From: Chloroflexia bacterium
GTDB taxonomy: Bacteria; Chloroflexota; Chloroflexia; QHBQ01
DNA: 62,420 bases
Assembly: GCA_038229595.1 (NCBI GenBank)
Contig: JBBROH010000004.1
Coordinates: 1-62,420, forward strand
Direction: 5' to 3'
The notes beneath the pieces were generated by a model. That model was not told the DNA's origin. It made no database searches and worked only from the letters and a program-made list of their open reading frames with translations. This document shows, in pieces, positions 9,775-32,212 of the stretch. The position numbers and the translations under genes are program-made. Within the stretch, counting starts at the first letter, position 1. Each line of letters begins with the position of its first letter.

Positions 9775-9832
9775 TGTTTCACGTGGAACGTGGTGCGGAG
9801 AACAAAAGGAAGGTTATGTTCCACGTGGAACA
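9775..9832. other. two further parS sites
   Basis: TGTTTCACGTGGAACG 9775-9790 and the perfect palindrome TGTTCCACGTGGAACA 9817-9832. Confidence 0.88.
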
Positions 9833-9995
9833 CCAAGCTCTTGCCCCTACTTGCCTGTTACACGCTGTTATGCAAGATTTGGGCCAGTTCTGGCCTTGCA
9901 CATTTCGGCTAGAAGGGGTATCCTAGTGGTTGGCTGAAGGGTTTGCGCCCTGGCTACCTATTACTTACAGAAACCAAGAAGGAGGAAGTGCTATC

Positions 9996-11507
9996 TTGCG
10001 AACAACGATCAAGGCACGGGGGCTACTGTTCGCCCTGCTGCTACTGCTGCTCAGTGGGCCGCTGGCGGGCCGCAGCTTCGCCCAGACCAGCGACGGTGGC
10101 GGAGTGCCGCCTGCCAACACGCTCAACCCTTTCGGGGTCAACCTGCTGCTTGACACCGAGGTGGAGGCGGTCAAGGTGGAGCGAACCATCTTCCTGGCCG
10201 CAGACGCGAACATGGGCTGGATCAAGCAGGAGTTCCCCTGGCAGGATATTGAGATCAACGCGAAGGGTGACTTCAACGACACTCGCGGTGGCGGCAGCAA
10301 AAGTGCGTGGGACAAGTACGACCGCATCGTGGGCTACGCCGAGCAGTACAAACTGAACATCGTCGCCCGACTGGACAAGGCTCCGCAGTGGGCGGGTGGG
10401 GTACCAGGCAATGCTGCTGCTTACTATGACTTCATCGAGGCTTTCATCAACCACTACAAGGGGCGGATCAAGTACATCCAGGTCTGGAACGAGCCGAACC
10501 TCAGTGCCGAGTGGCTGGATGGGCAGGTGCCAGACCCCGTCGCCTACACCACCTACCTGCGGGGGGCCTACCAACGCATCAAGCAGCTAGACCCTAGCAT
10601 TATCGTCCTCTCTGCGCCAATGGCCGCCACCACCGAGCCAGAGGGTAGCGTGCGGGGGATGAACGAGCTTACCTACTGGCAGGGGATGTACAAGGCGGGC
10701 GCGAAGGATGCGTTCGACGTGGCCTCGGCCAACGCCTACGGCCTCGCTGACGCGCCCGATGTTGCCCCCGACGCAGGCAAGCTCAACTTCCGCCGCGTAG
10801 AGTTGCTACATCAGGTGATGGAGAACAACGGCGATGGCAACAAGCAAATCTGGTTCAACGAGTACGGCTGGAATGCCAACCCCGGCCCGCCAAAGTTGAG
10901 CCAGGAGCAGACCGACTACTACCGCCAGGTCACGCCAGAGCAGCAGGCTCAATACACAGTGGACGGCATCAACTACGCCCGCCAGAACTGGCCCTGGGCA
11001 GGCGTGTTCTTCATCTGGTATCTGCGGCAGGATGGACAGCGCATCGCGGACAACGACGCGCAGTTCTACTTCGCTCTCGTCAACCCCGACTTCAGCATCA
11101 ACCCGGTCTACGGCGCAGTGAAGCGGGCGGCAGAGCAGTTCAAGGCCAACGCAGCCGCGCCACCTACACCAGTGCCAGCCACCTTCGCCCCTACCCCTAC
11201 CGGCGTGCCACCACCAACCAGCACCTCTGGTAGCGGTGGCGGCATCCTCGAACCGACGGTGACGAACGCACCGCCTGCTGCTGCTTCGCCAACCAGCCCA
11301 GCCGTTGCCACGCCCCGTATGGTGGCGCAGGCCACCGTCGCCAGCACAGCAACCCCAGCTAGCGGTAGCACCGACAGCGGCAACAACGGCCTTGTGCTGA
11401 TCATCCTCGTGGTGGTGGCGGCAGTTGCTCTGGTTGGCGGGGTCGCCTTCTTCTTGCGTGGCAGTGGCGGCAACGCTGGCAGCAGCGGGGGTAATGCCCG
11501 CCTCTAG
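9996..11507 (+). CDS. secreted, C-terminally membrane-anchored clan GH-A glycoside hydrolase (GH5/GH39-like)
   Basis: signal peptide, WNEPNL acid/base motif, IWFNEYGW nucleophile motif, Pro/Thr linker and C-terminal TM helix; TTG start after GGAGG. Confidence 0.82.
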   Translation: MRTTIKARGLLFALLLLLLSGPLAGRSFAQTSDGGGVPPANTLNPFGVNLLLDTEVEAVKVERTIFLAADANMGWIKQEFPWQDIEINAKGDFNDTRGGGSKSAWDKYDRIVGYAEQYKLNIVARLDKAPQWAGGVPGNAAAYYDFIEAFINHYKGRIKYIQVWNEPNLSAEWLDGQVPDPVAYTTYLRGAYQRIKQLDPSIIVLSAPMAATTEPEGSVRGMNELTYWQGMYKAGAKDAFDVASANAYGLADAPDVAPDAGKLNFRRVELLHQVMENNGDGNKQIWFNEYGWNANPGPPKLSQEQTDYYRQVTPEQQAQYTVDGINYARQNWPWAGVFFIWYLRQDGQRIADNDAQFYFALVNPDFSINPVYGAVKRAAEQFKANAAAPPTPVPATFAPTPTGVPPPTSTSGSGGGILEPTVTNAPPAAASPTSPAVATPRMVAQATVASTATPASGSTDSGNNGLVLIILVVVAAVALVGGVAFFLRGSGGNAGSSGGNARL

Positions 11508-11530
11508 GCTACAAATCACATTCGGGATTG

Positions 11531-11562
11531 AGGGCTGGCCTATAAAGCCAGCCCTTCCCCTT
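11531..11562 (+). terminator. intrinsic terminator
   Basis: AGGGCTGGC-loop-GCCAGCCCT followed by a pyrimidine tract. Confidence 0.55.
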
Positions 11563-11588
11563 TGCCAGATTACAGAACATTTGTTTTG

Positions 11589-11618
11589 TTGACAAGGCCG
11601 CTGCCAGCATCCTATAAT
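11589..11618 (+). promoter_or_regulatory. sigma70 promoter giving a probably leaderless rpe mRNA
   Basis: TTGACA-18bp-TATAAT; the ATG begins 7 nt after the -10 box and has no SD. Confidence 0.7.
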
Positions 11619-11624
11619 AGCCGC

Positions 11625-12332
11625 ATGAGCAACGGCTACCAGATAAAGATCGCCCCCTCGATCCTCGCTGCTGACTTCGCCCAGATCGGGGCTGAAGTGG
11701 CGCGGGCCGAGGCTGGTGGCGCAGACTATCTGCACCTAGACATTATGGACGGCGAGTTTGTGCCAAACATCACCTTCGGCCCACAGATGGTAGCCGCCAT
11801 CCGCGCCCATACCCACCTGCCGCTCGACATCCACCTGATGATCGTCCGCCCCGAACGCTACCTGCGCGACTTCGCTGAGGCTGGTGGCGACATCCTCAAC
11901 ATCCACGCTGAGGCTACTAACCACCTGCACCGCGCTGTGCAACAAATCCACGACCTCGGCAAGCGAGCGGGCGTAACGATCAACCCGGCTACCCCCGTTG
12001 CTGCCCTAGAGGAGATCATCCCCTACGTTGAACTGGTGCTGGTGATGAGCGTCAACCCTGGCTTTGGCGGCCAGAGCTTCATCCCCACCAGCCTGCGGAA
12101 GATCGCCCGCCTGCGCCAGATGATCGACAGTTGCGAACCGCACACCCCCAGCGGCCAGCGTGCCGACCTGGAGGTGGATGGTGGGGTCAAGCTGGGCAAC
12201 ATCCTTGCCTGCGCCGAGGCGGGGGCGAACGTGCTGGTAGCTGGCTCTGCGGTCTACAACCAGCAGCAGAGCGTGGCCGAGGCGATCAGCCAGCTACGTG
12301 CGGCGGTCAACGGCGACCAACCTCCTCATTAG
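11625..12332 (+). CDS. rpe: ribulose-phosphate 3-epimerase
   Basis: IAPSILAADF, HLDIMDGEFVPNITFG, MSVNPGFGGQ, EVDGG. Confidence 0.97.
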   Translation: MSNGYQIKIAPSILAADFAQIGAEVARAEAGGADYLHLDIMDGEFVPNITFGPQMVAAIRAHTHLPLDIHLMIVRPERYLRDFAEAGGDILNIHAEATNHLHRAVQQIHDLGKRAGVTINPATPVAALEEIIPYVELVLVMSVNPGFGGQSFIPTSLRKIARLRQMIDSCEPHTPSGQRADLEVDGGVKLGNILACAEAGANVLVAGSAVYNQQQSVAEAISQLRAAVNGDQPPH

Positions 12333-16197: not shown

Positions 16198-16938
16198 ATG
16201 GATAAGATGTTTCAAGACCTCGACCTCAGCCAGATCAAAGTGGGGGCCGGTTCCCGCTTCCCCGCCGAGGGCGGCGCGAATGCCGCTGCTGCCGAGCAAC
16301 CCACCGCTGACGTTGACGAAGGCACCGCAGCGGCCACCATGCCAGACACGGAGATTGCGGGCAGGGAGGAGCAGGATAGCGACGAGCCAGCCAGCTACGC
16401 CGAGCAGCCAGAGCGCAGCCAGCCCAACAGCTATGCCCCCCACCCAGAGCGCAGCCAACCCGGTAGCTACGCCGCCCAGCCAGAGCGCAGCCAGCCCAGC
16501 AGCTATGCCCCCCGCCCAGAGCGCAGCAATGCAGAGCGCAGCAAATACACTCCACCCCCCCGCCCAGAACGCAGCGATAGCCCTCGCCCAGAGCGTAGTA
16601 CGGCAGAGCCGGGGGCCAGCGTCGCAGGCAATGAAGAGGGAGTGCTGAAGGTCTCCTCTCAGTCGCGCCACAGCGCAGTAGCCGGGGCCATCGCCCGCGT
16701 CCTCCGCCAGCAGGATAAGGCAGAAGTGCAGGCCATTGGCGCGGCAGCCTGCTACCAGGCGATCAAGGCAGTCGCTACCGCCCGCAACTACCTGCTGCCA
16801 GAGGGGATCGACATCGCCTGCGTGCCGATGTTCACCGATGTGAACATTGGCGAACACGAGCGCACTGCCATCCGCTTCATTGTCACCCGCACCCTGCTAG
16901 AGAGCAAGCCCGCCGCTGCCGAGCAGCCCCAGGATTAG
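16198..16938 (+). CDS. spoVS: SpoVS (Alba-like) domain protein with a long repetitive N-terminal extension
   Basis: VLKVSSQS..SAVAGAIA..EVQAIGA..QAIKAVATAR..ERTAIRF; rny-ymdB-spoVS gene order. Confidence 0.88.
   Translation: MDKMFQDLDLSQIKVGAGSRFPAEGGANAAAAEQPTADVDEGTAAATMPDTEIAGREEQDSDEPASYAEQPERSQPNSYAPHPERSQPGSYAAQPERSQPSSYAPRPERSNAERSKYTPPPRPERSDSPRPERSTAEPGASVAGNEEGVLKVSSQSRHSAVAGAIARVLRQQDKAEVQAIGAAACYQAIKAVATARNYLLPEGIDIACVPMFTDVNIGEHERTAIRFIVTRTLLESKPAAAEQPQD
16393..16527 (+). repeat. about 4 x 36-bp coding tandem repeat (SYAxxPERSQPx)
   Basis: units start at 16393, 16429, 16465 and 16501. Confidence 0.9.
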
Positions 16939-19111: not shown

Positions 19112-20188
19112 GTGAATATCGAGACTGTCCTCCGCATTATGGGGGCCGGTGTTGGACTGGTACTGGGTTACATTGGCGCGCTCTACCTCTTTTTTGCTGC
19201 GCCAGCCGACCTCAAGCAGTTCTACGTTCTGGCCCTTGCGCTCCTCAGCGGCGTTGCCTTCCTACTCGGCACGCCGCTCGTTACCACCGTCCCCTTCCGC
19301 GCCGTACTGCACCGCCTCCAACAGCTATCTACCGCCGACGTAGTAGCGGGGGCGATTGGCTTGCTGCTTGGCCTACTGGCAGCGGCTCTGCTCACCGCCC
19401 CACTGCGCGAGTTGCCAGCCGTCGGCAACTTCGCGCCCGCCCTCGCCAGCTTCTTCTTCGCCTACGTTGGGGCGTGGATCATGATGCTGCGGAAGAAAGA
19501 CATCGCCAACTACTTCGGTGCCTTCAACCGCCGCCCCGTTACCGCCGCCAATCCGATCCTCGCGGCTGAAGCAGCCGTCTCCATCGCCGTCGAACGCGGC
19601 GTACTGGTAGATACCAGCGCGATCATTGACGGGCGTATCGCTGACATCGCCCAGACAGGCTTCGTCGAGGGTACGCTGCTCGTCCCCCGCTTCGTGCTGA
19701 ACGAACTACAGCACATCGCAGACAACGCCGACGCACTACGCCGCGCAAGAGGCAGACGCGGGCTGGAAATCCTCAATCGGATGCAGAAGGACAGTAGCGT
19801 GACGATCCAAATCTCCGACCTGGATGTGGAGAACACGCCAGAGGTGGATGGCAAGCTGATCAAGCTCGCCCGCCAGCACCGCTACGCGATCCTGACCAAC
19901 GATTACAACATGAACCGCGTCGCCGAATTGCAAGGCGTGCGCGTGCTGAACATCAACTCGCTGGCGAACGCGCTCAAGCCGATGCTGCTGCCTGGTGAGA
20001 CAATGGAGGCCCACGTGATCCAGGATGGTAAGGAGATCAACCAGGGGGTGGCTTACCTTGACGACGGCACGATGGTGGTGGTGGAGAACGGCAGACAGCA
20101 CATGAACCACACCGTCACCGTGCTAGTTACACGGGTGTTGCAGACAGCCCAGGGGCGGATGATCTTTGCCCAACTGATGCGGGATTAG
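19112..20188 (+). CDS. membrane-anchored PIN/TRAM domain protein (YacL-like)
   Basis: 4 TM helices, VDTSAIIDGRI, RGRRGLEIL, LTNDYN, GVAYLDDGTMVVVE, QTAQGRMIFA. Confidence 0.93.
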   Translation: MNIETVLRIMGAGVGLVLGYIGALYLFFAAPADLKQFYVLALALLSGVAFLLGTPLVTTVPFRAVLHRLQQLSTADVVAGAIGLLLGLLAAALLTAPLRELPAVGNFAPALASFFFAYVGAWIMMLRKKDIANYFGAFNRRPVTAANPILAAEAAVSIAVERGVLVDTSAIIDGRIADIAQTGFVEGTLLVPRFVLNELQHIADNADALRRARGRRGLEILNRMQKDSSVTIQISDLDVENTPEVDGKLIKLARQHRYAILTNDYNMNRVAELQGVRVLNINSLANALKPMLLPGETMEAHVIQDGKEINQGVAYLDDGTMVVVENGRQHMNHTVTVLVTRVLQTAQGRMIFAQLMRD

Positions 20189-20194
20189 CCAGCC

Positions 20195-20653
20195 ATGCGC
20201 CTGGTGATCCAGCGGGTACGCAGCGGTTCAGTGGCAGTGGCGGGCGTGGTCGTCGGCCAGATCGGGGGCGGTCTCGTCGTCCTGATCGGCATAACCCATG
20301 ACGACACGCCTGCCACCGCCGACCTGCTGGCAAACAAGCTAGTCAACCTGCGTATCTTCAACGATGCGGCAGGCAAGATGAACCGCTCTGCCCTCGATGT
20401 GGCCGCCGAGGTGCTGGTCATCTCCCAGTTCACGCTCTACGCCGATGCGCGCAAGGGACGGCGGCCCAGCTTCGTAGATGCTGCCCCGCCAGCCCCTCCC
20501 GCCTCACTCTACCAGGCGTTCGCCGCCGCCGTTGCCGCCAGTGGCCTACGGGTCGCCACTGGGCAGTTTCAGACCGAGATGCTGGTCGAAATCTGGAACG
20601 AAGGCCCGGTGACAATCGTGCTGGACTCTGCCGACTTCGCAGGTAAGGGATAG
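20195..20653 (+). CDS. dtd: D-aminoacyl-tRNA deacylase
   Basis: MRLVIQRV, SQFTL, GRRPSF, NEGPVT. Confidence 0.96.
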   Translation: MRLVIQRVRSGSVAVAGVVVGQIGGGLVVLIGITHDDTPATADLLANKLVNLRIFNDAAGKMNRSALDVAAEVLVISQFTLYADARKGRRPSFVDAAPPAPPASLYQAFAAAVAASGLRVATGQFQTEMLVEIWNEGPVTIVLDSADFAGKG

Positions 20654-21115
20654 ATGGACAAGACCCCAGCCAAGATCACCTGGCGCGCCCCCGTGCCAAA
20701 GACTGCCGCCCGTACTGCCCTGCTGCTGGCTAGCTGCGGCCTCATCTTCGTCATCCTGCTGCTCACCTTCAAGCTGTTCCTGGCTGTGGTAGTGACAGCC
20801 ACCTACGCCCTCTACCTACTACCCCCCTACTTCATCGCGCTCAGTTTCACAGTAGACAGCACGGGCGTGGGCTGGCGCAAGGGTGTGCAGAAGGGCAGCC
20901 GCCCCTGGGTTGCCTTCCGCCTCTACCGCCGCTACGCTGACGGCCTGGAACTGAGTGCCTTCCCACGCACGGCTGGCACCCCGCCGCCGCGCCTCAACCA
21001 GTACCGCGCCGTCTTCCTGCCCTTCGGCGAGAGCGATCCCGCCCAGCTGGAAGCGATAGTTAGCTGCCATCTGCCACTCGAAAGCGCAACCACAGAGCGC
21101 GAAAACGCAGTTTAG
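20654..21115 (+). CDS. hypothetical membrane protein (2 TM helices plus a PH-like tail)
   Basis: start abuts the dtd stop; hydrophobic hairpin. Confidence 0.65.
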   Translation: MDKTPAKITWRAPVPKTAARTALLLASCGLIFVILLLTFKLFLAVVVTATYALYLLPPYFIALSFTVDSTGVGWRKGVQKGSRPWVAFRLYRRYADGLELSAFPRTAGTPPPRLNQYRAVFLPFGESDPAQLEAIVSCHLPLESATTERENAV

Positions 21116-21158: not shown

Positions 21159-21187
21159 TTGACGTAACGTGGGAACGGTAATATACT
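21159..21187 (+). promoter_or_regulatory. sigma70 promoter of the 21239-30067 operon
   Basis: TTGACG-17bp-TATACT. Confidence 0.65.
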
Positions 21188-21238
21188 ATAGCAAGGGTTG
21201 GCGGTATGCTGCCCCAAAACTGGCTATGGTGGCTATAA

Positions 21239-21526
21239 ATGAACAAGCCGATTGACGACATTCAGGCTGCTGACCAGGCGGTGGAGACGATCCGCCGCTG
21301 GGGTCTGCGCGACCCTGCCCTGATCAGCCTGGAAGTGGGCAAGCCAGTGGCCTTCCTCGGCGCACAAATGCTCTACATTGCCAGCCCCCTCCTACACCTG
21401 TTCGACAGGGTGAGTGGGCGCAAGGTTGCGCCGCAAGCGGAGGCGGTCGCCCACCTGTTGGAGAACCCCGCCGCTACCACCTACCTCGGCGACCGCCTCA
21501 GCGAGCCAGAAGGAGAGCCACGATGA
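21239..21526 (+). CDS. conserved-looking small hypothetical protein
   Basis: LEVGKPVAFLGAQMLY motif; ATGA overlap with the next gene. Confidence 0.7.
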   Translation: MNKPIDDIQAADQAVETIRRWGLRDPALISLEVGKPVAFLGAQMLYIASPLLHLFDRVSGRKVAPQAEAVAHLLENPAATTYLGDRLSEPEGEPR

Positions 21527-22329
21527 ACCCAGCCTTCAGCGAGAAGATGGTAGTTGCCGCCCTTGCCCTGCTAGTCGTCTACCTGCTTATCTACCTCTAC
21601 CTGCTGGCCGCCAGCCGCCGCCGCTCTGCCCTGCCACCCCTGCGCGAGATTGCTGCCTATACCCGGTTGGACAATGCGGTGGCAAGGGCAGCAGAACTGG
21701 GCAAGGGCATCCACATCAGCCCCGGCGCAGGTGGCATCGAGAGCGGTAGCCACCCGGCAGAGACGCTGGCGGGCCTGACCGCGATGGAACACGTCGCCCG
21801 CCAAACGGCACTCAGTGGGGCCAACCTGATCGCCACTGCTGGCGAAGTGGCTAGCTACGCCCTGGCCGACAACGTGGTGGCACGCGGCTACGCGGCGGTT
21901 GGTCGCTCGGCAGATTACCAGCCGACTACTACCCGCTTCGTCAGCCAGAGCCAGAGCAACACGCTACCCTATACCGTCGGGGCGGCAGACGTGATCGAGC
22001 ATGAGGGAGTGGAGGCCAGCGTGACCATCGGCGCGTTCGGCCCTGACTACCTGCTACTGGGCGAGGCAGGACACCGCCAGGGGGTAGAGCAGGTGGTGGG
22101 GGCAACCAACCCCCAAGCCCTGACCACGATGGTGCTGGCGAACCCGCTCGGCCAGGTGTTGATTGGCGAGGAGATTTTCGCTGCTGGTGCCTACCTGCAA
22201 GGGCGCAGCAGCCACCGCGCCAGCCTGGTCGCGCAGGACGCGATCCGCATCCTGCTGATCCTGCTGATCATCGGCGGGGCGGTGTTGGCAACGGTCAGCC
22301 CGCAACTGCTCCAGGACTTGTTGAAGTGA
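21523..22329 (+). CDS. DUF6754-like membrane protein
   Basis: LREIAAY..AVARAAELGKGIH, LIGEEIFAAGAYL, SLVAQDAIR; TM helix at each end. Confidence 0.75.
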   Translation: MNPAFSEKMVVAALALLVVYLLIYLYLLAASRRRSALPPLREIAAYTRLDNAVARAAELGKGIHISPGAGGIESGSHPAETLAGLTAMEHVARQTALSGANLIATAGEVASYALADNVVARGYAAVGRSADYQPTTTRFVSQSQSNTLPYTVGAADVIEHEGVEASVTIGAFGPDYLLLGEAGHRQGVEQVVGATNPQALTTMVLANPLGQVLIGEEIFAAGAYLQGRSSHRASLVAQDAIRILLILLIIGGAVLATVSPQLLQDLLK

Positions 22330-22345
22330 AGCGTGAGGGAGAGCC

Positions 22346-23176
22346 ATGCTGAGACGCAATGCCGGTCGCAAAGACAGCCCCAAGCCAGACACGCCAGCGG
22401 CTACCCCCCCTGTTGCTGGGCCAGAGACTAGCCCGGCCAAAGTAGTGCGGGTAGCCCGGGTGCGCGGCAGAGGGGCGACCCCCCCTGGGACAACAGCGGC
22501 CCCGCCCGGAGCGCGCCTGCCAGCCCCCTTTGCTACCGTGGTGGTGGTGATTAGCGGCATAGTCGCCCTGGTCAGCTACTTCGTGCGCGGCAGCTTCAAC
22601 GTCGGCAGCGTGACGGTCAACGTCGGCGGTCTGGGCGACCTGCTGATCGGGCTGGTCAGCCTGCTACTCGCCTTCGCCCTGTTCGTCGGCCTCGCCAATC
22701 TGCTACGCGTCCACCTGCGGCGCGTCGGCAAGCGAGAGAGTGGCTGGCCCTACAGCCTCGTGCTACTCGGCAGCGCACTGGCTACCATCATTGCCGGGGT
22801 AGTGGGCAGCGTGAGCAGCAACAAGAGTGGCCTCAGCGGTGACGCGGCCAGTTGGATTTTCCAGAACATCTACCAACCGTTGGGCAGCACCTTCTACAGC
22901 CTGCTGGCCTTCTTCATCGCCACCGCTGCCTTCCGCGCCTTGCGCGCCCACACGGTAGAGGTTGGCATCATGGCAGTGGTTGCCCTGATCGTGGTGGCAG
23001 GACTGGCCCCGATTAGCCAGTTGCCAGAACTAAAGAGCGTGGCTGACCTGGGCAACTGGGTTCTCAACTATCCAGCGCAGGCAGGCGTGCGCGGGATCGC
23101 AATCGGTGCGTCGCTGGGGGTAATCGCCACCAGTTTGCGCGTGCTGCTCGGCATTGATCGGCAGTACCTCGGCTAG
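22346..23176 (+). CDS. multi-pass membrane protein of the DUF6754/GlmL-like operon
   Basis: about 6 TM helices; FYSLLAFFIATAAFRALR, RGIAIGASLGVIATSLRVLLGIDR. Confidence 0.75.
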   Translation: MLRRNAGRKDSPKPDTPAATPPVAGPETSPAKVVRVARVRGRGATPPGTTAAPPGARLPAPFATVVVVISGIVALVSYFVRGSFNVGSVTVNVGGLGDLLIGLVSLLLAFALFVGLANLLRVHLRRVGKRESGWPYSLVLLGSALATIIAGVVGSVSSNKSGLSGDAASWIFQNIYQPLGSTFYSLLAFFIATAAFRALRAHTVEVGIMAVVALIVVAGLAPISQLPELKSVADLGNWVLNYPAQAGVRGIAIGASLGVIATSLRVLLGIDRQYLG

Positions 23177-23188
23177 GCGGAGAGTATA

Positions 23189-26038
23189 ATGGCTGACGAC
23201 ATGGACATCATCGTACCAATCCGTTGCCCCAACTGCGACGGTCTCAACCCACCTGACAGCAAGCGTTGCCAGTTCTGTGGGCAGTCGTTGGTTGGCGCAA
23301 AGCCGACGGCCATCGCGCCGCCCAGTGGGGAGCTACGTAGCCCGGCGGCTCCGCCCACCCCACCTACACCCGACTTCCTCAGCCGCCCAGCGGATGCACG
23401 GCCAGCGGCTGGCCCAATCGCCTCACCCTTTGCTGCCGCCCCACCGCCACCGCAGCAACGAGTTGAGCCGATCCCCCAGCCTCAACCGGCCCCGCCTGCC
23501 AGCCCAGCCGCCAGGGGTGGCGGCGCACTGGCTTCGCGCCTGGGTGGTCAAGCACCAGCCCCAGCTAACGACGCGCTTGGTGGCCTCGACAACCTGCGAA
23601 GTGGGATCGCTGGGTTCTCAGCCGCCGACTTGCCGCAGACTGGCGAACTGAACGGCTATGTGGTGCCGCCGCAGCCGGTCGCCAGCCCCTTCCGCCGCGA
23701 GGAGGAGGAGACCCGCCACCGCGATAGCGAGTCGGCGGTAGACTGGCTGGCTAGCTTGCGTGCATCGTCCAGCCTGCCAGAAGAAGCGGAGCAGGCTGGC
23801 GAGGCAGGCGACAGCTGGCTCAATCGGGTGCGCGGAGCGGATAGCTACAACCCGCCGCCCACAGGCCGCTCGCTCAGTCAGCCACTCGATGTGGCACGGC
23901 CAACCTCAGCCCCACTCAACCCGCCCCCCAATCAGCTAGCCGAAGTACAACACGGGGTAGTAGAGCAGCCCAACAGCAGTCAGTCCCTGCCCGATTGGTT
24001 CCGCAGCCTGCGCGGTGAGGAGACAGAGCCGCCCGCGCCCACCGCCGACAGCATCCCGCCCTGGCTGGCAGAGCAGCCTGCACCCGCCGCCAGCAACCTC
24101 CCGGCCTGGTTGAGCGGGGAGGATGAGTCAGCCACAAGCGCGGCCCCTGCACCGACCAGAGCGGACAGCGACCTGCCACCCTGGTTGCAGGAGGAGGCCA
24201 CCAGCCAACCGCCCGCCGCTGCCAGCAATCTGCCCTCCTGGTTGAGCGGGGAGGAGGTGGACACCGCCCCTGCGCCCACTAGCAACCGGCCCGCCTGGTT
24301 GAGCGGCGCAACGCCAGAGACAACGACCAGCAGCAGCCCAACCTGGGCCAGCAGCCCCCCACCTGCGCCTACCCCCCCCGCCCACGACAGCAACCCCGGC
24401 CTGCTAGGGGAAGTGGACGCACCCTGGTTGCAGCAACTTGCTGCCCAACCGCTGCCTACCCCACCCGCAGCAACCCAGCCGCAGCGCAATGCTGCCGACT
24501 TCTTTCCTGCCAGCGTCCCAGCCAACCAAGCGGATGAGATGGCAGAGGAGAACGACGAGATGCCGCCCTGGTTGCTAGCCGAGGAGCAGGACGAGGCAGC
24601 CACCGCCACTAGCCAGAGCTTCGTTCAAGCCGAACCCGACCCAGAAGGGGACACGGACGAGGTGGAGGAGCAAGCTGTAGCTGAGCCGACCGCTGGGCGG
24701 AAGAAGGCAACAGGGCTGATCAACGAGGAGGACTTGCCCGCCTGGTTGCGGGCGCAGGTGGCCGAGCAGGAGCAGGGCCAGGTGCGCCTGCCTCGCTCTG
24801 CCAGCCGCGCCAACACCACCGCCCCGCGCCCAGAGCAGGGTGAGGGCAGCGGCTACGTACCGAACTGGTTGCGGAACCTGGGGACGAGCGACGAGGACGC
24901 GACCGCTGCTGCCAACGCTGCAACCGCCGCCAGCGACCTGACCGCGACGCTAGCCCCTGCTATCCCCAAGATCAGCCGCACCATGACGATCCGTAGCCCC
25001 CGCACTGGGGCCGCCGAAGCCTTCGCTGCCCTCGTCTCCTCGCCCAGCAGCGCGACCCTGACCTCCTCTGTTTTGCGCCACGAACCACGCGGGGCAGCCG
25101 GGGCGATGCGCTACCTGACCGCGGATCGCCTGATCTACCTGCTCACCCTGGCCGTGATCATCACGGCTTATGTGCTAGGCCAGAGTTCGAGTGGCGGCCC
25201 GCTCGGTAATATCGCCAAGCCCAATATTGCGCCTGCGGTTAGCAGCTTCTACAGCACGATTGAGAACCTGCCCGCTGATGCGCCGGTGCTGGTGGCCTTC
25301 GACTGGGATGCCGACCGCCAGGCGGAGTTGCAACCGCTCAGTTACGCTGTGCTGCGCCACCTGTTCGACCGTCAGCGGCGGGTGACAACCGTCAGCCTGC
25401 TACCAGCGGGGGCCGCCTTCGCCCAGCAGGAGTTGCAGCGGGCCAGCAAGGACTACAACGCGAGCCAGCAGAACACCGGTAAGAAGATCGAATACCTCAA
25501 CCTCGGCTACCTGCCAGGCAACGAGATCGGCCTGCGCGGGCTGGCGACTGGCCCCCTTGCCAACGCTCTGACCGGGCGGGCCGACTTCCAGGGCAACCCC
25601 CTGACTGGCAGTGCCGCCCTGCGTGGGGTCAGCCGCCTGAGCGACTACCGCCTGATCGTGCTGCTAGAGGGTGATGAGGGACTGGCCCGCCAGTGGGCCG
25701 AGCAACTGAACGCAGCCCGCCTGCAAACCCAGCAGGTAGCCAACGCCAGCGGCGTGAACCAGGCTACCCAGGTAGTGATCGGTTACAGCCAGGCGGCCCA
25801 GGCGACCGTCAATCTCTACTTGAACGGCAGCCGCCCTCTGTTTAGCGGCAATATCGCGGGCCTGCTCGGCACCGACCAGTACGCGCTCGCCCTCAACCAG
25901 GCAGGCAAGGCTCTGGACAGCCAACTGGGGCGCGAACAACGCTCCAACGTCCTCTCCTTCGCCCTGATCCTCATCGTCCTCTTGATCATCATCGGCAATA
26001 TCGTGCTGATTAGCCGCTGGGCCAGCAACCGGCGTTAG
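23189..26038 (+). CDS. zinc-ribbon + PxWL-repeat disordered region + TM-flanked globular domain protein
   Basis: CPNC..CQFC, about 13 Trp-centred motifs in an acidic Pro/Ala-rich region, TM helix, VLVAFDWD..ELQP and YLNLGYLPG domain, C-terminal TM. Confidence 0.8.
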   Translation: MADDMDIIVPIRCPNCDGLNPPDSKRCQFCGQSLVGAKPTAIAPPSGELRSPAAPPTPPTPDFLSRPADARPAAGPIASPFAAAPPPPQQRVEPIPQPQPAPPASPAARGGGALASRLGGQAPAPANDALGGLDNLRSGIAGFSAADLPQTGELNGYVVPPQPVASPFRREEEETRHRDSESAVDWLASLRASSSLPEEAEQAGEAGDSWLNRVRGADSYNPPPTGRSLSQPLDVARPTSAPLNPPPNQLAEVQHGVVEQPNSSQSLPDWFRSLRGEETEPPAPTADSIPPWLAEQPAPAASNLPAWLSGEDESATSAAPAPTRADSDLPPWLQEEATSQPPAAASNLPSWLSGEEVDTAPAPTSNRPAWLSGATPETTTSSSPTWASSPPPAPTPPAHDSNPGLLGEVDAPWLQQLAAQPLPTPPAATQPQRNAADFFPASVPANQADEMAEENDEMPPWLLAEEQDEAATATSQSFVQAEPDPEGDTDEVEEQAVAEPTAGRKKATGLINEEDLPAWLRAQVAEQEQGQVRLPRSASRANTTAPRPEQGEGSGYVPNWLRNLGTSDEDATAAANAATAASDLTATLAPAIPKISRTMTIRSPRTGAAEAFAALVSSPSSATLTSSVLRHEPRGAAGAMRYLTADRLIYLLTLAVIITAYVLGQSSSGGPLGNIAKPNIAPAVSSFYSTIENLPADAPVLVAFDWDADRQAELQPLSYAVLRHLFDRQRRVTTVSLLPAGAAFAQQELQRASKDYNASQQNTGKKIEYLNLGYLPGNEIGLRGLATGPLANALTGRADFQGNPLTGSAALRGVSRLSDYRLIVLLEGDEGLARQWAEQLNAARLQTQQVANASGVNQATQVVIGYSQAAQATVNLYLNGSRPLFSGNIAGLLGTDQYALALNQAGKALDSQLGREQRSNVLSFALILIVLLIIIGNIVLISRWASNRR

Positions 26039-26049
26039 GGGGTCTGTCC

Positions 26050-26691
26050 GTGTCTGTACCATTCATCGTCGCAGCCCTGCTTACCCTGGTAGTTTATAGC
26101 TACCTGGTGGGCGACAACCCGGCCTACCGCGCCGCCCAGCACCTCTTTGTGGGGGTCAGCGTGGGGATCGCCGTGCTGGTGGCCTTCTACAACGTGGTCT
26201 GGCCCCAGCTACTCTTTCTCTACCAGCAGAAGGACACCTTCACCATCTTCACCAACCCCAGCCTGCTGTTCCTATTCCTCAGCCTGATCCTCGGTGTGGT
26301 GTTGCTGTTCAAGCTAACCCTCCCCCGCAATGCTGCCTCTAACTCGGTGCTGGGCATCATCCTCGGCACCGGGGCGGCGGTCGCCCTCGCTGGCGCACTG
26401 ATCGGCACCCTGATCCCACAAGCTCTGGCGACGATGGTACCGCTGAACGGCAACGGCACCATCCCCTCAATCCTGGGCAACGTCGTACTAGTTGTCGGCG
26501 TGGTCACCACCCTCTCCTACTTCTACTTCACCGGGCGCAAAGACGGCAGTCGTGGGCCAGTAGCGCAATACGGCGCAACCCTGGGCCGCTACTTCATCAT
26601 GATCGCCTTCGGGGCGATCTTCGGCCTGCTCACCGTCTCCTTCTTCGCCGCTCTTTACGGGCGTATCTTCTTCCTTGCCAACCCAAGCTGA
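26050..26691 (+). CDS. multi-pass membrane protein of the same operon
   Basis: TLVVYSYLVGDNPAYRAAQHLFVGV, GRYFIMIAFGAIFG; about 6 TM helices. Confidence 0.75.
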   Translation: MSVPFIVAALLTLVVYSYLVGDNPAYRAAQHLFVGVSVGIAVLVAFYNVVWPQLLFLYQQKDTFTIFTNPSLLFLFLSLILGVVLLFKLTLPRNAASNSVLGIILGTGAAVALAGALIGTLIPQALATMVPLNGNGTIPSILGNVVLVVGVVTTLSYFYFTGRKDGSRGPVAQYGATLGRYFIMIAFGAIFGLLTVSFFAALYGRIFFLANPS

Positions 26692-26705
26692 CCGAGGCGA
26701 TATAA

Positions 26706-28817
26706 ATGCTCAACTTTGAAGCACACAACAGCCCCCGCATCGAATCGATCCTCACCGCCGACGTGGGTAGCCTGTGGACGCGCGTGGCCCTCTTTGACGT
26801 GGTGGCGGGCGAATACCGCTTCCTTGCCCGCGCCAGTGCGCCGTCTACCGCCGAGCTACCCTTCGGCGATATCACAGTGGGCCTCTACAACGCGATGAGC
26901 GAGTTGGAGAAGCTGACAGGACGGCAACTAGTGGACGAGGGCCACATTCTGCTGCCAATGACCACCAACGGTAACGGCGTGGATGCCTTCATTGCCGCCA
27001 GCAGTGCAGCCCCCAGTATGCGTGTCGTCTTGCTGGCGATCACCCGCGACATCACAGCCCGCAGTGCGATCCACGCCGCCGAGAGTACCTACAGCAACGT
27101 GCTTGAGTTGATCACGGTGGACGAGACGACCGCGAAGGGCGACCAGCCAGAGGCCGAGGGTGACTGGTTCGTGCGCCAGGTGCGCCGCATGATAGCCTTG
27201 CAGCCAGAGGCGGCGATCATCGTCGGCGGGGTGGATGGTGGGCCGGTCGCACCGCTGATCAAGCTGGCGAACGTGGTAGCTGCTGCCGCCCAGGATCGCA
27301 ACAACCGCGCCCAACTGGTGAATGCCCGCCAGGCCCAGCTACCGGTCGTCTACGCGGGCAACCAGAGCGCACGCGGCAAGATATTGGAGACGCTGGAGAC
27401 GATCACCGACCTGCGCCTGATCGACAATATCCGCCCCCGGCTCGACCGCGAACGGCTCGGCCCAGCCCAGGAGCAACTGGATAGCCTCTACATCAAGAGC
27501 CAGCTTGACCACGTAGCTGGCTATCAACGGTTGAGTAGCTGGACGGAGACGATCATGCCAACGGCACTGGCGACGGGGATCGTCACGCGCTACGTGGCTG
27601 GGCAGTACAAGCGCGACGTGCTAACGGTGGACATTGGTGCGTCGTCGGTCAGTGCCTTCCTGACCAATAGCGCGACCTCGGACGTGGAGGATCGGCCAGC
27701 GGGCCAGGCCCAGTCTAGCTTCTATCGGGTGGTGCGGGGCGACTTCGGTCTCAGCTACGGCCTGCCCAACCTGCTGCGCGAAGTGGGGGTGGCGGCGATC
27801 AACCGCTGGCTGCCCTTCGAGATCGGCGAGGAGGAGTTGAGCGAGTGGGCCTTGAACCGAATGCTGCGCCCGCTCACCATCAGCCAGACCCGCCGCGAGT
27901 TGCAGCTTGAACACGCCTTCGCCCGCGAGGGGATGCGCTACCTTGCCCGCCGCCTACGCGAACAGGCACCGGATGGCCGCCCCAGCTATGACTTGCTGAT
28001 TGGCACTGGCGGCGTACTGGCTCATGCCCCCAGCCTGGCGGCGGCGGCCTTGCTGATGCTGGACGGCCTGGAGCCGGAGGGTCTGCCCGCTGGTTCAGTA
28101 GAGTTGGCAGTAGACGGCACCATGATCCTACCCCACATCGGGGTGATGGCTGCCGTCAGTCCCGCTGCCGCTGCCTACATCTTCGACCGCGACAGCCTCC
28201 TTTGGCTCGGCACTGCGGTGGTGCCGCTGCCAGCCGTCGCCCATCCCAGCCCCGGTCAGCCCGCCGTCACCGTCACCGTTACCTACGCCGACGGCAGCGA
28301 ACCGCTCAAGGCAGAGGTGGCTTACGGCGAAATCCGCCTAATCCCACTGCGCCTCGATCAGCGAGCTAGCCTGGCGGTACAGCCCGGTAAGGACTTCCGC
28401 ATTGGCAGCGGCGAGCGTGGCAAGCTGGTACGAACCATGGGCGACGACGTAAAGGGCGGCTATGTCGGGTTGATCGTGGACGCACGCGGACGACCACTGC
28501 ACCTACCTGCGGACGTGCAAGGTAGGCAGGCGACCATGCGCCGTTGGCAGCAAGCTCTTGGCATTGTCGCCCCAGAAGCGACCACCCGCCAGCCAACCGG
28601 CACCCTGCGCCCGCCTGGTGCGCCCGACCAGACCCTACCGCCCCTCGCCACTCGCCTCAACCTCAACCCAGAGGATGAGCAGGCCACCGAGGAAACCAGC
28701 TTCGATTTTGGCATTGGCAGCAGCGGCAATGGTGGCGACGACGTGATCGCCAATCGCTTGAGCCAACTGAGCCGCCCGCCTGCCAACCCGGATGAGGGGA
28801 GAAAGAAACGCCGATGA
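26706..28817 (+). CDS. GlmL/MutL (glutamate mutase L)-like actin-fold ATPase
   Basis: phosphate-1 motif TADVGSLWT, SSAAPSMR, GGVDGG, YAGN, DNIRP, IMPT, phosphate-2 motif VDIGASS, IGTGGVLAH, GLIVDARGRP. Confidence 0.8.
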   Translation: MLNFEAHNSPRIESILTADVGSLWTRVALFDVVAGEYRFLARASAPSTAELPFGDITVGLYNAMSELEKLTGRQLVDEGHILLPMTTNGNGVDAFIAASSAAPSMRVVLLAITRDITARSAIHAAESTYSNVLELITVDETTAKGDQPEAEGDWFVRQVRRMIALQPEAAIIVGGVDGGPVAPLIKLANVVAAAAQDRNNRAQLVNARQAQLPVVYAGNQSARGKILETLETITDLRLIDNIRPRLDRERLGPAQEQLDSLYIKSQLDHVAGYQRLSSWTETIMPTALATGIVTRYVAGQYKRDVLTVDIGASSVSAFLTNSATSDVEDRPAGQAQSSFYRVVRGDFGLSYGLPNLLREVGVAAINRWLPFEIGEEELSEWALNRMLRPLTISQTRRELQLEHAFAREGMRYLARRLREQAPDGRPSYDLLIGTGGVLAHAPSLAAAALLMLDGLEPEGLPAGSVELAVDGTMILPHIGVMAAVSPAAAAYIFDRDSLLWLGTAVVPLPAVAHPSPGQPAVTVTVTYADGSEPLKAEVAYGEIRLIPLRLDQRASLAVQPGKDFRIGSGERGKLVRTMGDDVKGGYVGLIVDARGRPLHLPADVQGRQATMRRWQQALGIVAPEATTRQPTGTLRPPGAPDQTLPPLATRLNLNPEDEQATEETSFDFGIGSSGNGGDDVIANRLSQLSRPPANPDEGRKKRR

Positions 28818-30067
28818 GCTTCTACTACCCAACCAAGCAGCCACCGATCTCGCTCACTACCCTGGTGCGCGTCGAACGCCGCCTACCGCTCGCGGGCGAA
28901 GTGACGGTGCGCGTCGGCACGCGGGTAGACCCTGGCGACATCGTGGCCCGCACCCTGATCCCTGGACAGAAGGTGGTGCTTGACCTGGCTAGAGAACTGG
29001 GGGTTAAGCCGAAGGAGGTGGCGAAGCTGCTGCGGCGCAAGGAGGGCGAGCAGATTGAGCCGGGCGAAGTGATCGCCGGGCGGCGCGGCATCGGCGGCAA
29101 GCAGATCAAGTCGCCTATCTCTGCCGAACTGAGCAGTGTGGACAGCGGCACGGGCAGCGTTACCCTCACTCCGATGGGCGAGATGTTCGAGCTTGACGCG
29201 CACCTCAAAGGTATCGTGATGGAGGTCTTCCCCCTGCAAGGGGTTAGCGTGGAGACCCCCGCTGCTGTCGTGCGTGGCTTGTGGGGCATGGGTGGCGACC
29301 GCTATGGCGTACTCAAGCTACTCGTCACTGGGGCGGATGAGCCGCTGACCGCTGACCTGGTAGACGCGAAGGCCACCTACGCCGTGGTCGTAGGCGGGGC
29401 GGCAGTGACGGCGGACGCACTAAAGCGGTGCATCGAAAACCGCGTGCGGGGGGTGATCGTTGGCAGCATGGCCCTGAGCGAACTCCGCAATTTCCTGCTT
29501 GAATACTACACGCCAGAGGCGTACATGGCCGCCAGCGACCTGCTGGACTGGCCGCTGGGCAGGCTGGGCTGGCAGTTCCCGCCCGTGCCGCTCTTTCCAG
29601 AGCGTGCGCCGCTCGACCGCCGTGGCTCGGCGGCCCGCCAGTTGCCGGGGCAGGCCCAGCAACCGCTAGCTCTCCCCTTCACCCTGATCGTCACTGAGGG
29701 CTTCGGCCAGATGCCGATGTCCAACCGCGCCTTCGACCTGCTAGCCGCCGCCGACGGTCAGGAGGTGACGATCAGCGGCACCACCCGCCTGCGTGGTGGC
29801 CTCGCCCGACCAGAGGTGATCATCCCCTTGCCACGCAGCAGCGTGCAGGGCCGCGACCTGAGCGACAGCCAGACAGCACCAGCGATCCACGTTGGCAGCA
29901 CAGTGCGCCTGATCGCTGCCCCTTATATTGGCGGCATTGCAAAGGTGACGGCCTTGCCTGGCGCAGCCCGCCCACTACCCAGCGGCCTCACCGCCCGTGT
30001 CGCCGAGGTCGCCCTCGACAATGACCACCTGCTGATCCCCATCTTCGACCTTGAGGTGCTGGACTGA
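28814..30067 (+). CDS. hypothetical protein with barrel-sandwich hybrid motifs and a C-terminal KOW/SH3-like domain
   Basis: RRLPLAGEVTVRVGTRVDPGDIVA, TEGFGQMPM, RPEVII, VGSTVRLIAAPYIGG; ATGA overlap with the ATPase gene. Confidence 0.75.
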   Translation: MSFYYPTKQPPISLTTLVRVERRLPLAGEVTVRVGTRVDPGDIVARTLIPGQKVVLDLARELGVKPKEVAKLLRRKEGEQIEPGEVIAGRRGIGGKQIKSPISAELSSVDSGTGSVTLTPMGEMFELDAHLKGIVMEVFPLQGVSVETPAAVVRGLWGMGGDRYGVLKLLVTGADEPLTADLVDAKATYAVVVGGAAVTADALKRCIENRVRGVIVGSMALSELRNFLLEYYTPEAYMAASDLLDWPLGRLGWQFPPVPLFPERAPLDRRGSAARQLPGQAQQPLALPFTLIVTEGFGQMPMSNRAFDLLAAADGQEVTISGTTRLRGGLARPEVIIPLPRSSVQGRDLSDSQTAPAIHVGSTVRLIAAPYIGGIAKVTALPGAARPLPSGLTARVAEVALDNDHLLIPIFDLEVLD

Positions 30068-30092
30068 GCAGCGCAAATTGGCAGATAGCAAG

Positions 30093-30120
30093 AGGCCCGC
30101 TGGATTGCTCCGGCGGGCCT
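30093..30120. terminator. hairpin between convergent genes
   Basis: AGGCCCGCTGGA-TTGC-TCCGGCGGGCCT. Confidence 0.6.
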
Positions 30121-30184
30121 GCTGCTTGTGCTGGTGGGGGCGGGGAGGCGACTAATCGCCTCCCTGCCCTTTGCCCAACGGAGC

Positions 30185-32017
30185 TTACTTGCTGAACCAG
30201 TCGGGCTGGCTGTCGCTGAAGCTGTTCTGCACGATAGGCACCAGTTCGCTGTTGTCAGCGCGGGCGCGGAACAGTTGCAGGCGGCCACTCGTCCCCTGCT
30301 CGCGGGCGTACGCGATGCGCCCACCGTCGCTGCTGAAGGCCGGATCCCAGTCATTGCTGTTATTGTTGGTCAACCGCTGGTTGTTGCTGCCGTCAACCTT
30401 GACCAGGTAGAGTTCCAAAGCGGCTGCGCTACCATCTGGGCCACCAACGTAGATGATGCGGCTGCCCTGTGGCGACCAGCGCGGTAGGATGTTAGCGTTG
30501 CCGATGCCGGGGTTGGTTACGCGGCGCACGTTGGTGCCGTCGGCGTTCATCACGTAGATGCTCTTGGCCCCGTCGCGGTTGCTGACGAAAGCGATCTGAG
30601 TCGCGTCGGGCGACCAACTGGGGTCAACGTCGAAGCTGGTGTTGCCAGTCAGCCGCACAGGGTCGGCCCCCACAAAGAGGTCGGTAGTGAAGATTTCCTC
30701 TGCGCCATAAGCCTCCTCGAAGCCGACGAAGGCGATCTTCTGGCCGTCGGGCGACCAGGATGGCTTGCTCTGGCGACCAGGGTAGTTGTTGTTGAGCAGG
30801 ATCGGGTTGCTGCCGTCCTTGTTCATGATGTACAGCTTGAACTCGCCGCTGCGGTTGCTGATGAAGGCGATCTTGCTGCCGTCAGGCGACCAAACCGGGT
30901 CTTTGTTGACGCTGTTATCGTTGGTCAGGTTGACGCGGCTGCTACCAGTCGGCTTCATCGCGTAAATCTGCGACTTGGTGGTGTCGGTGTACTGGTTGGA
31001 GGTGAAGACGATCACGCCAGCCAGTGGCCCCGGCTGCGGGGTAGCCGTCGGCTGTGCGCCAGCAGTCGCGGTCGGGCTGGCGGCAGGCGTACCTGGCACA
31101 GGGGTGTTGACCACCGGGGTGCTTGCGCCGATCAGTTGGTACCGCCACTTGTAGTAGTGTTGGCCGATGTTGCCCATCTCCACCTTGAAGCCGGGCGGGT
31201 TGGAGGGAACGTAGGTGAGGACGCGTCGCTCGTAAAGCTGGATCATCACGTCCAGGCCGCTGACCCCAGCTATCTTGACCTTCGTCCAGTACGGCTCGCT
31301 GATCGGCAGGCCACTGGCGTAGAACCAGGGGTCGTTCAGCCGCTCCGACTGGCCGCCGCCACCAACCGGGCCGCTGGCATTGAGGAAGTTCCACATCACT
31401 TCGGGGATATTGTGCCTGGTGGTGGTGTCGAAGTAGACGTTGCGGGTGCCGGGCAGGTTGGCCTTGTTCGGATCGAGACCGAGGCCGCCGAAGCGGTCAA
31501 TCGTGTCAATCACGTTCTGGCCGCGGCGGTCGGCAGCAGGGCCGGTGAAGCTGGTGAAGGTGGCGTAGGTGGGCGCGTTCGCATCGTCGGGGTCGCCCGA
31601 AACGGGGATCTGCGCCGGGCTGTACTGCTGGAAGGTATTATCGCCCAATTGAAGCTTGCCACTGACAAGCTCGGTTGTGAGCAGGCCGTTGGTAACGTAG
31701 AACTTGCTGTTGCGATCTGCGTTGGGGTTGTTGATCTCCATGCGGCTCTTGTCGAAGTATTGGACGAGGTGCTGGCCGTTAACCCCCTGGGCGTATGGCT
31801 CGTAGAGGCCCGCCGTGTTGGGCTGTGGCCCCCAGTACCAACTGCGGGTGGCACTGCCGTTCTGCACGGGCAGGTCAGTGCGCTGCCACACATTGTAGAA
31901 GGCAGGGTCGGCGAAGCCGGTTTGGGCGGCGGCGGGGCTGATGTTGCTGAGGATGCCGAGGATCATCAGCAGGGCGATTGCGCTGGCCGCCAGCTTGCGG
32001 CGGTTGTTCTTGTACAT
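30185..32017 (-). CDS. secreted protein: N-terminal cell-surface domain + TolB-like PD40 beta-propeller
   Basis: signal peptide; RTDLPV..RSWYWGP..VQYFDKSRME domain; repeated PxWSPDGxxIAF; RBS AAGGAG. Confidence 0.88.
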   Translation of the reverse strand: MYKNNRRKLAASAIALLMILGILSNISPAAAQTGFADPAFYNVWQRTDLPVQNGSATRSWYWGPQPNTAGLYEPYAQGVNGQHLVQYFDKSRMEINNPNADRNSKFYVTNGLLTTELVSGKLQLGDNTFQQYSPAQIPVSGDPDDANAPTYATFTSFTGPAADRRGQNVIDTIDRFGGLGLDPNKANLPGTRNVYFDTTTRHNIPEVMWNFLNASGPVGGGGQSERLNDPWFYASGLPISEPYWTKVKIAGVSGLDVMIQLYERRVLTYVPSNPPGFKVEMGNIGQHYYKWRYQLIGASTPVVNTPVPGTPAASPTATAGAQPTATPQPGPLAGVIVFTSNQYTDTTKSQIYAMKPTGSSRVNLTNDNSVNKDPVWSPDGSKIAFISNRSGEFKLYIMNKDGSNPILLNNNYPGRQSKPSWSPDGQKIAFVGFEEAYGAEEIFTTDLFVGADPVRLTGNTSFDVDPSWSPDATQIAFVSNRDGAKSIYVMNADGTNVRRVTNPGIGNANILPRWSPQGSRIIYVGGPDGSAAALELYLVKVDGSNNQRLTNNNSNDWDPAFSSDGGRIAYAREQGTSGRLQLFRARADNSELVPIVQNSFSDSQPDWFSK

Positions 32018-32212
32018 AAAGTCACTCCTTTGGTACAATCGGTAGTGTGTGGTGGGCAGGCTGCCCGCTAACCAGCCGGTTGCGGCTGTCTGACCATTAT
32101 AACGGATAAGCGGCGCAGAGGTTGCATCCGCTACTATACGTCCCCATCCTACCAGCGGAGGGGGTGGTTGGCACGAAAAAGGCGCATCGCTGCGCCCGGT
32201 CTGCCAAATGGT

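Follow-up and report, generated by a model that had tools for sequence, protein, structure and literature searches.

A conserved Chloroflexota operon combines a GlmL-like actin-fold ATPase, a three-domain partner protein, four membrane proteins and a tryptophan-motif array

We analyzed a 62,420-nucleotide (nt) stretch of a Chloroflexia bacterium (GenBank assembly GCA_038229595.1, contig JBBROH010000004.1), hereafter called the window, and focused on a seven-gene operon, g1 to g7, that it contains. The source genome is 87% complete and is distributed over 318 contigs, the window lying on contig C4. The operon encodes an ATPase of the ASKHA superfamily (actin/Hsp70 fold), g6, which bears the database label "glutamate mutase L" (GlmL), together with an accompanying protein, g7, a set of membrane proteins and, on one of these, g4, an array of short tryptophan-containing motifs. 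An earlier note on this DNA had proposed that the label was misleading and that the genes specify an ATP-driven or ATP-scaffolded membrane complex. The seven open reading frames (ORFs) lie on the plus strand between 21239 and 30067, with successive gaps of -4, +16, +12, +11, +14 and -4 nt, and the locus reads as follows.

21159-21187, plus strand: promoter-like site TTGACG-17-TATACT, agreeing with a sigma-70-like consensus at 10/12 positions, 52 nt upstream of g1
21239-21526, plus strand: g1, 95 amino acids (aa), one weakly hydrophobic segment at residues 37-55, overlapping g2 by 4 nt
21523-22329, plus strand: g2, 268-aa DUF6754 protein (Pfam PF20539, E-value (E) 4e-36)
22346-23176, plus strand: g3, 276-aa membrane protein, six hydrophobic segments after a Pro/Ala-rich N-terminus of ~60 aa
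23189-26038, plus strand: g4, 949-aa scaffold/membrane protein with a zinc ribbon, a disordered motif region and two transmembrane (TM) segments
26050-26691, plus strand: g5, 213-aa membrane protein, six hydrophobic segments
26706-28817, plus strand: g6, 703-aa GlmL-like ASKHA ATPase (Pfam PF13941, E 6e-74, residues 15-495)
28814-30067, plus strand: g7, 417-aa three-domain protein, overlapping g6 by 4 nt (model with a predicted local distance difference test score, pLDDT, of 80.9)
30093-30120, plus strand: G+C-rich hairpin, 26 nt past the g7 stop codon

The earlier note had described seven co-oriented genes with gaps of -4 to +16 nt and a terminal hairpin, all of which are present. Its list of proteins was also right, except that the two genes for six-TM proteins, g3 and g5, flank g4 and do not precede it. 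Above the Pfam cut-offs, g2 and g6 were the only products to match a family, and the other five matched none.

The distribution of the operon was surveyed by searching 301 Chloroflexota genomes and 14 control genomes for DUF6754 and PF13941. DUF6754 was found in 79/301 Chloroflexota genomes, one copy in each and near all-or-none by family, and in 0/14 controls, so about a quarter of the sampled Chloroflexota carry the operon, in single copy. PF13941 matches occurred in 168/301 genomes, 135 of them above the cut-off. Both tallies count two genomes flagged as unpublished, G038 and G272, each without DUF6754, and no other claim made here uses them. In 57 of the 79 DUF6754 genomes, a long form of the ATPase lay on the same contig, always on the same strand (57/57) and 2.8-8.5 kb downstream of DUF6754 (median 5.0 kb). 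The ATPase was on a different contig in 19 genomes, and none was listed in the remaining three. The 19 split cases are fragmented assemblies in which the genes often lie near contig ends, and the repeat arrays of g4, with 84-nt units in locus L034, have probably broken these assemblies.

Twenty of the 79 loci, representing 11 families and picked for family spread and long contigs, were fetched and searched for orthologs with tblastn (E ≤1e-3). Both g5 and g6 were detected in all 20, g3 in 16, g2 and g4 in 15, g7 in 14 and g1 in 6. ORF maps showed the same gene string by position in 20/20 loci, with small ORFs standing at the position of g1 in loci beyond the six with a tblastn match. The seven-gene operon is real and conserved across Chloroflexota. 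It matches no described system: full-text literature searches for the names DUF6754 and PF13941, supplementary files being outside their scope, returned no paper, and among the papers listed for "glutamate mutase L" and related names there were only ones on mismatch-repair MutL.

We then considered g6, which is single-copy in the source genome. It clearly belongs to PF13941 (249.9 bits for a cut-off of 27) and shares with GlmL/MutL, the accessory protein of glutamate (methylaspartate) mutase, and with its relative Or-4 from ornithine degradation the same ASKHA domain family, including the Gly and Asp residues of the phosphate and adenosine motifs; the corresponding positions G21, G174, G175, D309, G311 and G435 were invariant in 21-27 orthologs. 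The likeness ends there. The g6 protein has 703 aa whereas the short GlmL proteins compared with it have 443-483, the difference including a conserved C-terminal beta-rich domain at residues ~497-625 with invariant G584, D592, R594, P597 and W614. It scored far below the curated cut-offs of NCBIfam, with 107.6 bits for the GlmL equivalog (NF040745, cut-off 475), 91.3 for the Or-4 equivalog (NF040744, cut-off 600) and 58.3 for the subfamily model TIGR01319 (cut-off 204). In an unrooted maximum-likelihood tree of 31 sequences, all from Chloroflexota, the 27 long forms stood apart from four short GlmL proteins, the branch between the two groups having 100/100 support. Three of the four short forms adjoin either MutE and the B12-binding subunit or an ornithine/lysine aminomutase, while for the fourth this could not be shown; in contrast, g6 adjoins membrane genes and g7, never a mutase. 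No B12 mutase gene (glmS/glmE, oraS/oraE, kamD/E) was present among the seven operon genes and the 10 scanned neighbors.

A possibility was that g6 is nonetheless a true reactivase acting in trans on a B12 mutase encoded elsewhere. In favor of this are its membership in PF13941 and three matches of the methylmalonyl-CoA-mutase type on other contigs of the source genome (C86, C187 and C114). Besides the failed cut-offs and the tree, the linkage to DUF6754 in every same-contig case speaks against it, as does the absence of any PF06368 match in the source genome, although at 87% completeness this absence is not proof. Moreover, two genomes, G076 and G184, hold both a short GlmL next to an aminomutase and a long form in its own operon. 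We regard a trans-acting reactivase as very improbable. The operon has nothing to do with B12 mutases, and the label "glutamate mutase L" is misleading: databases name this type of ATPase, wrongly, after the helper of a B12 enzyme. The earlier note had reached the same view of the label, and had held that its proposal would fall if g6 nested among mutase-linked GlmL proteins, with a B12 mutase strictly co-occurring, or if synteny were not conserved; it withstands both, because g6 lies outside that group in the Chloroflexota tree and the ATPase stands downstream and co-oriented in all 57 same-contig cases.

Other searches with g6 gave little. A Pfam scan at E ≤0.1 returned PF13941 and a chance match to Rib, and nothing for FtsA, SHS2, PilM, MreB or ParM; a profile search of the PDB returned one match, unusable at E 0.87. 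Run with the C-terminal domain alone, that profile search picked up TTHB207 (E 0.03) and a Mop/TOBE protein (E 1.3), both weak and unusable, and Pfam scans of its orthologs found no family common to more than three members. A disordered tail follows this domain in the class of the window only. In the window, g6 ends in a basic cluster devoid of hydrophobic residues, while the tails of six same-class orthologs end in a basic aromatic stretch resembling the amphipathic end of FtsA.

The g7 protein was modeled as three domains, namely a barrel-sandwich hybrid (~19-147), a swivelling beta/beta/alpha domain (~150-339) that includes a disordered insert of ~45 aa, and a KOW domain (357-417). The earlier note had recognized the first and the last from the letters and had missed the middle one. 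In structure comparisons (VIA), the barrel-sandwich matched biotinyl carriers and the N-termini of RnfC and NqrA with Z ~8. The swivelling domain matched the phosphohistidine domain of Enzyme I (2wqd_A; Z 10.1, 105 residues, root-mean-square deviation (rmsd) 2.5), rifampin phosphotransferase (Z 9.4) and the C-domain of pyruvate kinase (Z 9.3), these top three aligning over 104-106 residues with rmsd 2.5-3.1. The KOW domain matched Spt5 (Z 8.5-8.8), and the PDB profile search also returned KOW matches to Spt5 and L24. The middle of g7 thus has the fold of a domain of phosphoenolpyruvate (PEP)-utilizing enzymes. It differs from them in having no conserved phospho-acceptor His: alignments of 15 and 26 orthologs contained no invariant or near-invariant His, the invariant residues being glycines, and no Pfam match to the PEP-utilizer families was obtained.

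Two sets of loci showed how closely g7 accompanies g6. Among the 20 fetched loci, g7 adjoins g6 in 14, and the six without it all come from the class of the window; in the five genomes of those six that were searched, g7 was found once elsewhere each time (E ~1e-86). In families devoid of DUF6754, 11 loci carry g6, and g7 adjoins it in 10 of them while membrane genes are found in none. The membrane genes are therefore not the invariant core, since some lineages keep g6, mostly with g7, without them, and it is the g6-g7 pair that makes the constant core of the system. This also qualifies the earlier note: the gene set of the window is membrane-associated, as it had said, but the membrane genes are the variable part, and none of our findings singles out transport or secretion. 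None of the four short GlmL proteins comes with its own g7. In a set of 1.84 billion proteins, the g7 family accounts for 3,943 representative clusters at E ≤1e-3, and 2,846 of these persist when the threshold is tightened to E ≤1e-10.

In those same-class genomes where g7 is not linked to g6, it is immediately followed, in the same orientation, by a gene for a response-regulator receiver domain, in 4/4 loci examined, and two of the four products are hybrid histidine kinases. These neighbors may hint at control of the g6-g7 pair by phospho-signalling. The loci are the following.

L058, 6969-8159: g7-receiver locus
L060, 6822-7937: g7-receiver locus
L059, 6277-7947: g7-receiver locus
L062, 9327-10961: g7-receiver locus

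The most unusual sequence of the operon is in g4. After a CxxC...CxxC zinc ribbon at residues 13-30 comes an Ala/Pro/Ser-rich region of ~600 aa, followed by the conserved part (residues ~640-940), which runs from TM1 (648-666) to TM2 (923-941); the conserved domain of ~255 aa between the two would lie outside the cell. Residues 268-561 (nt 23990-24871) contain nine P-x-W-[LF] motifs, while the rest of the genome's 18,938 six-frame ORFs have three each at the most. Relatives of g4 carry 0 to 63 copies. A profile built from 22 of them reads [DE]-[DE]-L-P-x-W-L-[RQK], and the aromatic position is nearly always tryptophan (W 362, F 1, Y 1). In four loci of family f16, g4 is reduced to the TM-domain-TM core and has no motifs. 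Families f27, f31 and f49 account for eight of the 11 loci without DUF6754 described above. In all eight, the gene directly upstream of g6 specifies a protein with a zinc ribbon, 6-15 motifs and, at its C-terminus, a tail that is basic and amphipathic; these loci consist of only this array protein and g6, with g7 in seven of the eight.

At the DNA level, the window array retains only a weak repeat (45 nt x1.9), its spacers having diverged while the motif was kept, whereas the array of L034 is a young tandem repeat of 84-nt units (x14.2, 91% identity). Divergence of the spacers with retention of the motif argues for selection on the motif itself.

Motif-like sequences were also seen outside g4. 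A 613-aa membrane protein (C170, 437-2278, minus strand) carries D-E-L-P-F-W-L-Q once, within its cytoplasmic tail, and FtsK (C132, 7056-9983, minus strand) has V-P-K-W-M-R-E near its gamma domain. Each of these is a lone match that looks fortuitous, as do the pattern matches on C94 and C85 and that in the TPR protein of C112. In L036, the disordered C-terminal tail of the g6 ortholog (9598-11775), one of the six same-class tails mentioned above, itself holds two copies of a P-D-W-L motif of the g4 type.

Which protein would bind the array? We compared g6 and g7 between lineages with and without motifs. Six columns of g6 (I81, Y129, V293, L387, D494 and G530, four of them hydrophobic) were conserved where the array is present and altered in the lineages that lack it, compared with 0, 0, 1 and 3 columns in four control partitions of equal size. 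For g7, one column behaved in this way, and the controls gave 1, 0, 0 and 1. The comparison hints, weakly, at g6 as the receptor of the motifs. A complex prediction for L039, combining g6 and g7 with a 53-residue fragment bearing two motifs, gave a score of 0.00 for a mark of 0.32 and is evidence neither way.

The motif also recalls cell division. The C-terminus of FtsZ is a conserved peptide to which FtsA and other proteins dock. A 2025 article in mBio (PMC12607630) describes this C-terminal peptide as ~14 residues long, placed after a disordered linker and having many partners. The FtsZ of the source genome ends in D-D-L-D-I-P-P-F-L-R-Y-R-Q-R, and eight relatives share the form D-[LI]-D-[IV]-P-x-F-L-R, to be set beside the array profile given above. 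It could be, then, that the array imitates the FtsZ peptide and binds its usual receptors, proteins of the FtsA, MinC and SepF type, the operon regulating or organizing septation in these bacteria. A common pattern, [DE][LIV]P.[FW][LM][RKQ], occurs six times in the 18,938 ORFs (two in g4, one in FtsZ, one in FtsK and two in other proteins), a post hoc count as the pattern was set after both sequences had been seen. When the aromatic column is left out, the FtsZ peptide falls within the top 7e-5 to 1.3e-4 of 2.7 million proteome 12-mers scored on the array profile; still, it is the best-scoring 12-mer in only 4/12 FtsZ proteins, the one of the source genome not being among the four. In L035 (genome G036), ftsA and ftsZ (181-2790) lie directly upstream of g2 (3027), but this was so in 1/20 loci. 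FtsZ always has F where the arrays have W, and the arrays always travel with g6. Imitation of the FtsZ tail for the sake of septation therefore seems unlikely to us, even if we place it first among the rival explanations.

We noticed that the ftsZ of L035 changes frame inside the linker, which puts the D-D-L-D-I-P-P-F-L-R tail into a different frame; the cause is a true frameshift or an error of sequencing.

We take the likeness of form between arrays and FtsZ tails to be real. As far as sequences can tell, it points to a similar docking mode and, because the arrays use W where FtsZ always has F, to a separate W-specific receptor, not to plain mimicry. The pairing of FtsA with the FtsZ peptide, or of PilM with the N-terminus of PilN, offers a parallel, as both designs involve an actin-fold ATPase, a membrane anchor and a disordered arm that bears a short acidic-hydrophobic motif. 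In addition, the array motif is similar to the FtsZ tail found in the same organisms. The differences are that g6 belongs to neither family, that the motif is present in 9-63 copies on a membrane protein instead of once on the polymer FtsZ, that its W is strict and that its binding by g6 is putative. The comparison with PilM and FtsA drawn in the earlier note is an analogy of logic and does not make g6 a member of either family. One might go further and see in the arrays multivalent look-alikes of the FtsZ peptide, with g6 as their dedicated actin-fold receptor in the way that FtsA serves FtsZ, which would make the operon a membrane-cytoskeletal or divisome-linked organizer not described before. 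We hold this to be improbable as well. If true, tens of ATPase units would gather along an array at defined places on the membrane, septa or cell-cell junctions for example, and a copy number ranging from 0 to 63 would tune this by lineage.

Another rival explanation gives g6 the role of a polymerizing bacterial actin whose filaments the array would anchor to the membrane as a cytoskeletal element. The actin fold, the putative multivalent tether and the FtsA-like basic aromatic tails of same-class g6 proteins, similar to those found on the array proteins of the three-gene loci, are in line with it. Against it, g6 matches none of the FtsA, MreB and ParM families at E ≤0.1, and the obligate partner g7 and the added beta-domain are rather suggestive of an enzymatic or chaperone module. 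A review (PMC5597319) counts glutamate mutase, that is, the GlmL-type protein, among the non-polymerizing members of the superfamily. We consider a filament doubtful, a little more so than the two preceding ideas.

The membrane proteins themselves were less informative. The model of g2 (pLDDT 90.7) consists of a helix (3-35), a Rossmann-like alpha/beta domain (44-226) and a second helix (229-258); because basic residues follow the first helix, the domain probably faces the cytoplasm. Its fold search gave generic Rossmann-like matches only (sirtuin, SDR, KTN, USP; best VIA Z 9.7), and Foldseek gave nothing at E ≤1e-3. Pfam scans of all g3, g4-core and g5 orthologs found no family common to more than three members, and searches of the ESM Atlas with g5 and the g4 core returned unnamed Chloroflexota clusters only. 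Profile comparison among g1, g2, g3, the g4 core and g5 gave probabilities below 1% throughout, hence no paralogy.

The general architecture of these proteins could suggest a transporter or secretion device, the main suggestion of the earlier note. The channel or permease would consist of g3 and g5, assisted by g2 and g4 as auxiliary subunits and powered by the ASKHA ATPase. Indeed, the operon encodes two six-TM proteins and two bitopic ones, the latter each having two TM helices that flank a soluble domain, and one g3 sequence weakly matched ABC2_membrane_3 (E 0.02). However, that match lies below the cut-off and concerns 1/20 g3 orthologs, neither g5 nor the g4 core has a common family, and g6 persists without membrane genes in the 11 loci described above. 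Besides, no transporter is known to be energized by an ASKHA ATPase. We judge a transporter unlikely, about as much so as the divisome-linked organizer.

Two related candidates were also considered. ABC2_membrane_3 was absent from 21 g5 and 21 g4-core members and the operon has no ABC ATPase, so that a GldG/ABC-2 system has no support beyond the single g3 match. Likewise, g3 and g5 have no Rnf-Nqr Pfam match, and the likeness to Rnf/Nqr is confined to a barrel-sandwich insert of g7 (63-65 residues; RnfC Z 8.4, NqrA Z 7.8).

We favor a different account, to which we give a probability of about 0.5: a g6-g7 pair tethered by the array and acting on a membrane complex. The constant cytoplasmic unit would be the ASKHA ATPase with its added beta-domain, together with the three-domain g7. 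In the window, g4 would hold this pair at the membrane, the acidic h-P-x-W-L-[RQK] motifs (h, hydrophobic) of its cytoplasmic disordered arm providing for the multivalent docking of a partner, most probably g6. In the window, g4 would also be one of four membrane subunits, g2 to g5, and the pair would act on this g2-g5 complex through an ATP-driven conformational cycle, which we picture as chaperone-like or reactivase-like and not as a filament. Behind this account we rank, in descending order, FtsZ-tail mimicry, the transporter, the actin-like filament and the trans-acting reactivase.

Several observations weigh against this account. Family f16 has g6, g7 and the membrane genes but no array, and since it does without, the array is not essential to the system. 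The covariation of g6 with the array rests on approximately four independent lineages, some on long branches, and controls made of a single clade give many more columns (27 for f16 alone). The swivelling domain of g7 lacks a conserved His. Finally, no fold or family match assigns a function to the membrane subunits.

DdrA-DdrB of diol/glycerol dehydratase and EutA are ASKHA-fold chaperones of B12 enzymes, and DdrA contains a "swivelling" domain. These reactivases resemble our system in joining an ASKHA ATPase to a second component, and DdrA does so further through the swivelling beta/beta/alpha domain seen in g7. They differ in that no B12 enzyme is encoded near the operon and in that g7 is a separate polypeptide with an added barrel-sandwich and KOW domain. 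DdrA was not among the fold-search matches listed, which does not exclude families that were not listed.

The operon would offer a tractable bacterial array of short linear motifs, with up to 63 putative docking sites per protein, coupled to an actin/Hsp70-fold ATPase. Should the likeness to the FtsZ tail prove functional, it would bear on the organization of the membrane or the septum in these bacteria.

Regarding transcription, the TTGACG-17-TATACT site is a plausible promoter by its match to consensus alone. It is not significant by itself because 10 kb of sequence contained two sigma-70-like sites for 1.1 expected, and the single promoter of the earlier note is to be taken with that reserve. 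At the other end, the fold of 30080-30135 reaches -37.2 kcal/mol (z -4.64), a value equaled by 0/200 shuffles. The hairpin likely marks the end of the operon; it has no T-run, and the terminator scan made no call there.

The ten scanned neighbor genes encode YmdB, SpoVS, PHP, AIM24, PIN-TRAM, D-Tyr-tRNA deacylase, PD40 repeat proteins and a helix-turn-helix regulator. The genes for PIN-TRAM and D-Tyr-tRNA deacylase (window 19112-20653) lie upstream of the operon, as they do in L036 and L038, while L037 has the deacylase gene alone in this place. Between them and the promoter-like site, a 153-aa ORF (20654-21115) showed neither a Pfam family nor, in any of the 20 loci, a tblastn match. Further upstream, the SpoVS domain of a 246-aa ORF (16198-16938) spans residues 149-229 only, and the real start of this gene is probably downstream of the listed ATG. 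Past the operon, a second inverted repeat, spotted by eye at 30140-30165, closely follows the PD40-repeat gene that converges on the operon (30185-32038, minus strand) and is probably the terminator of that gene.

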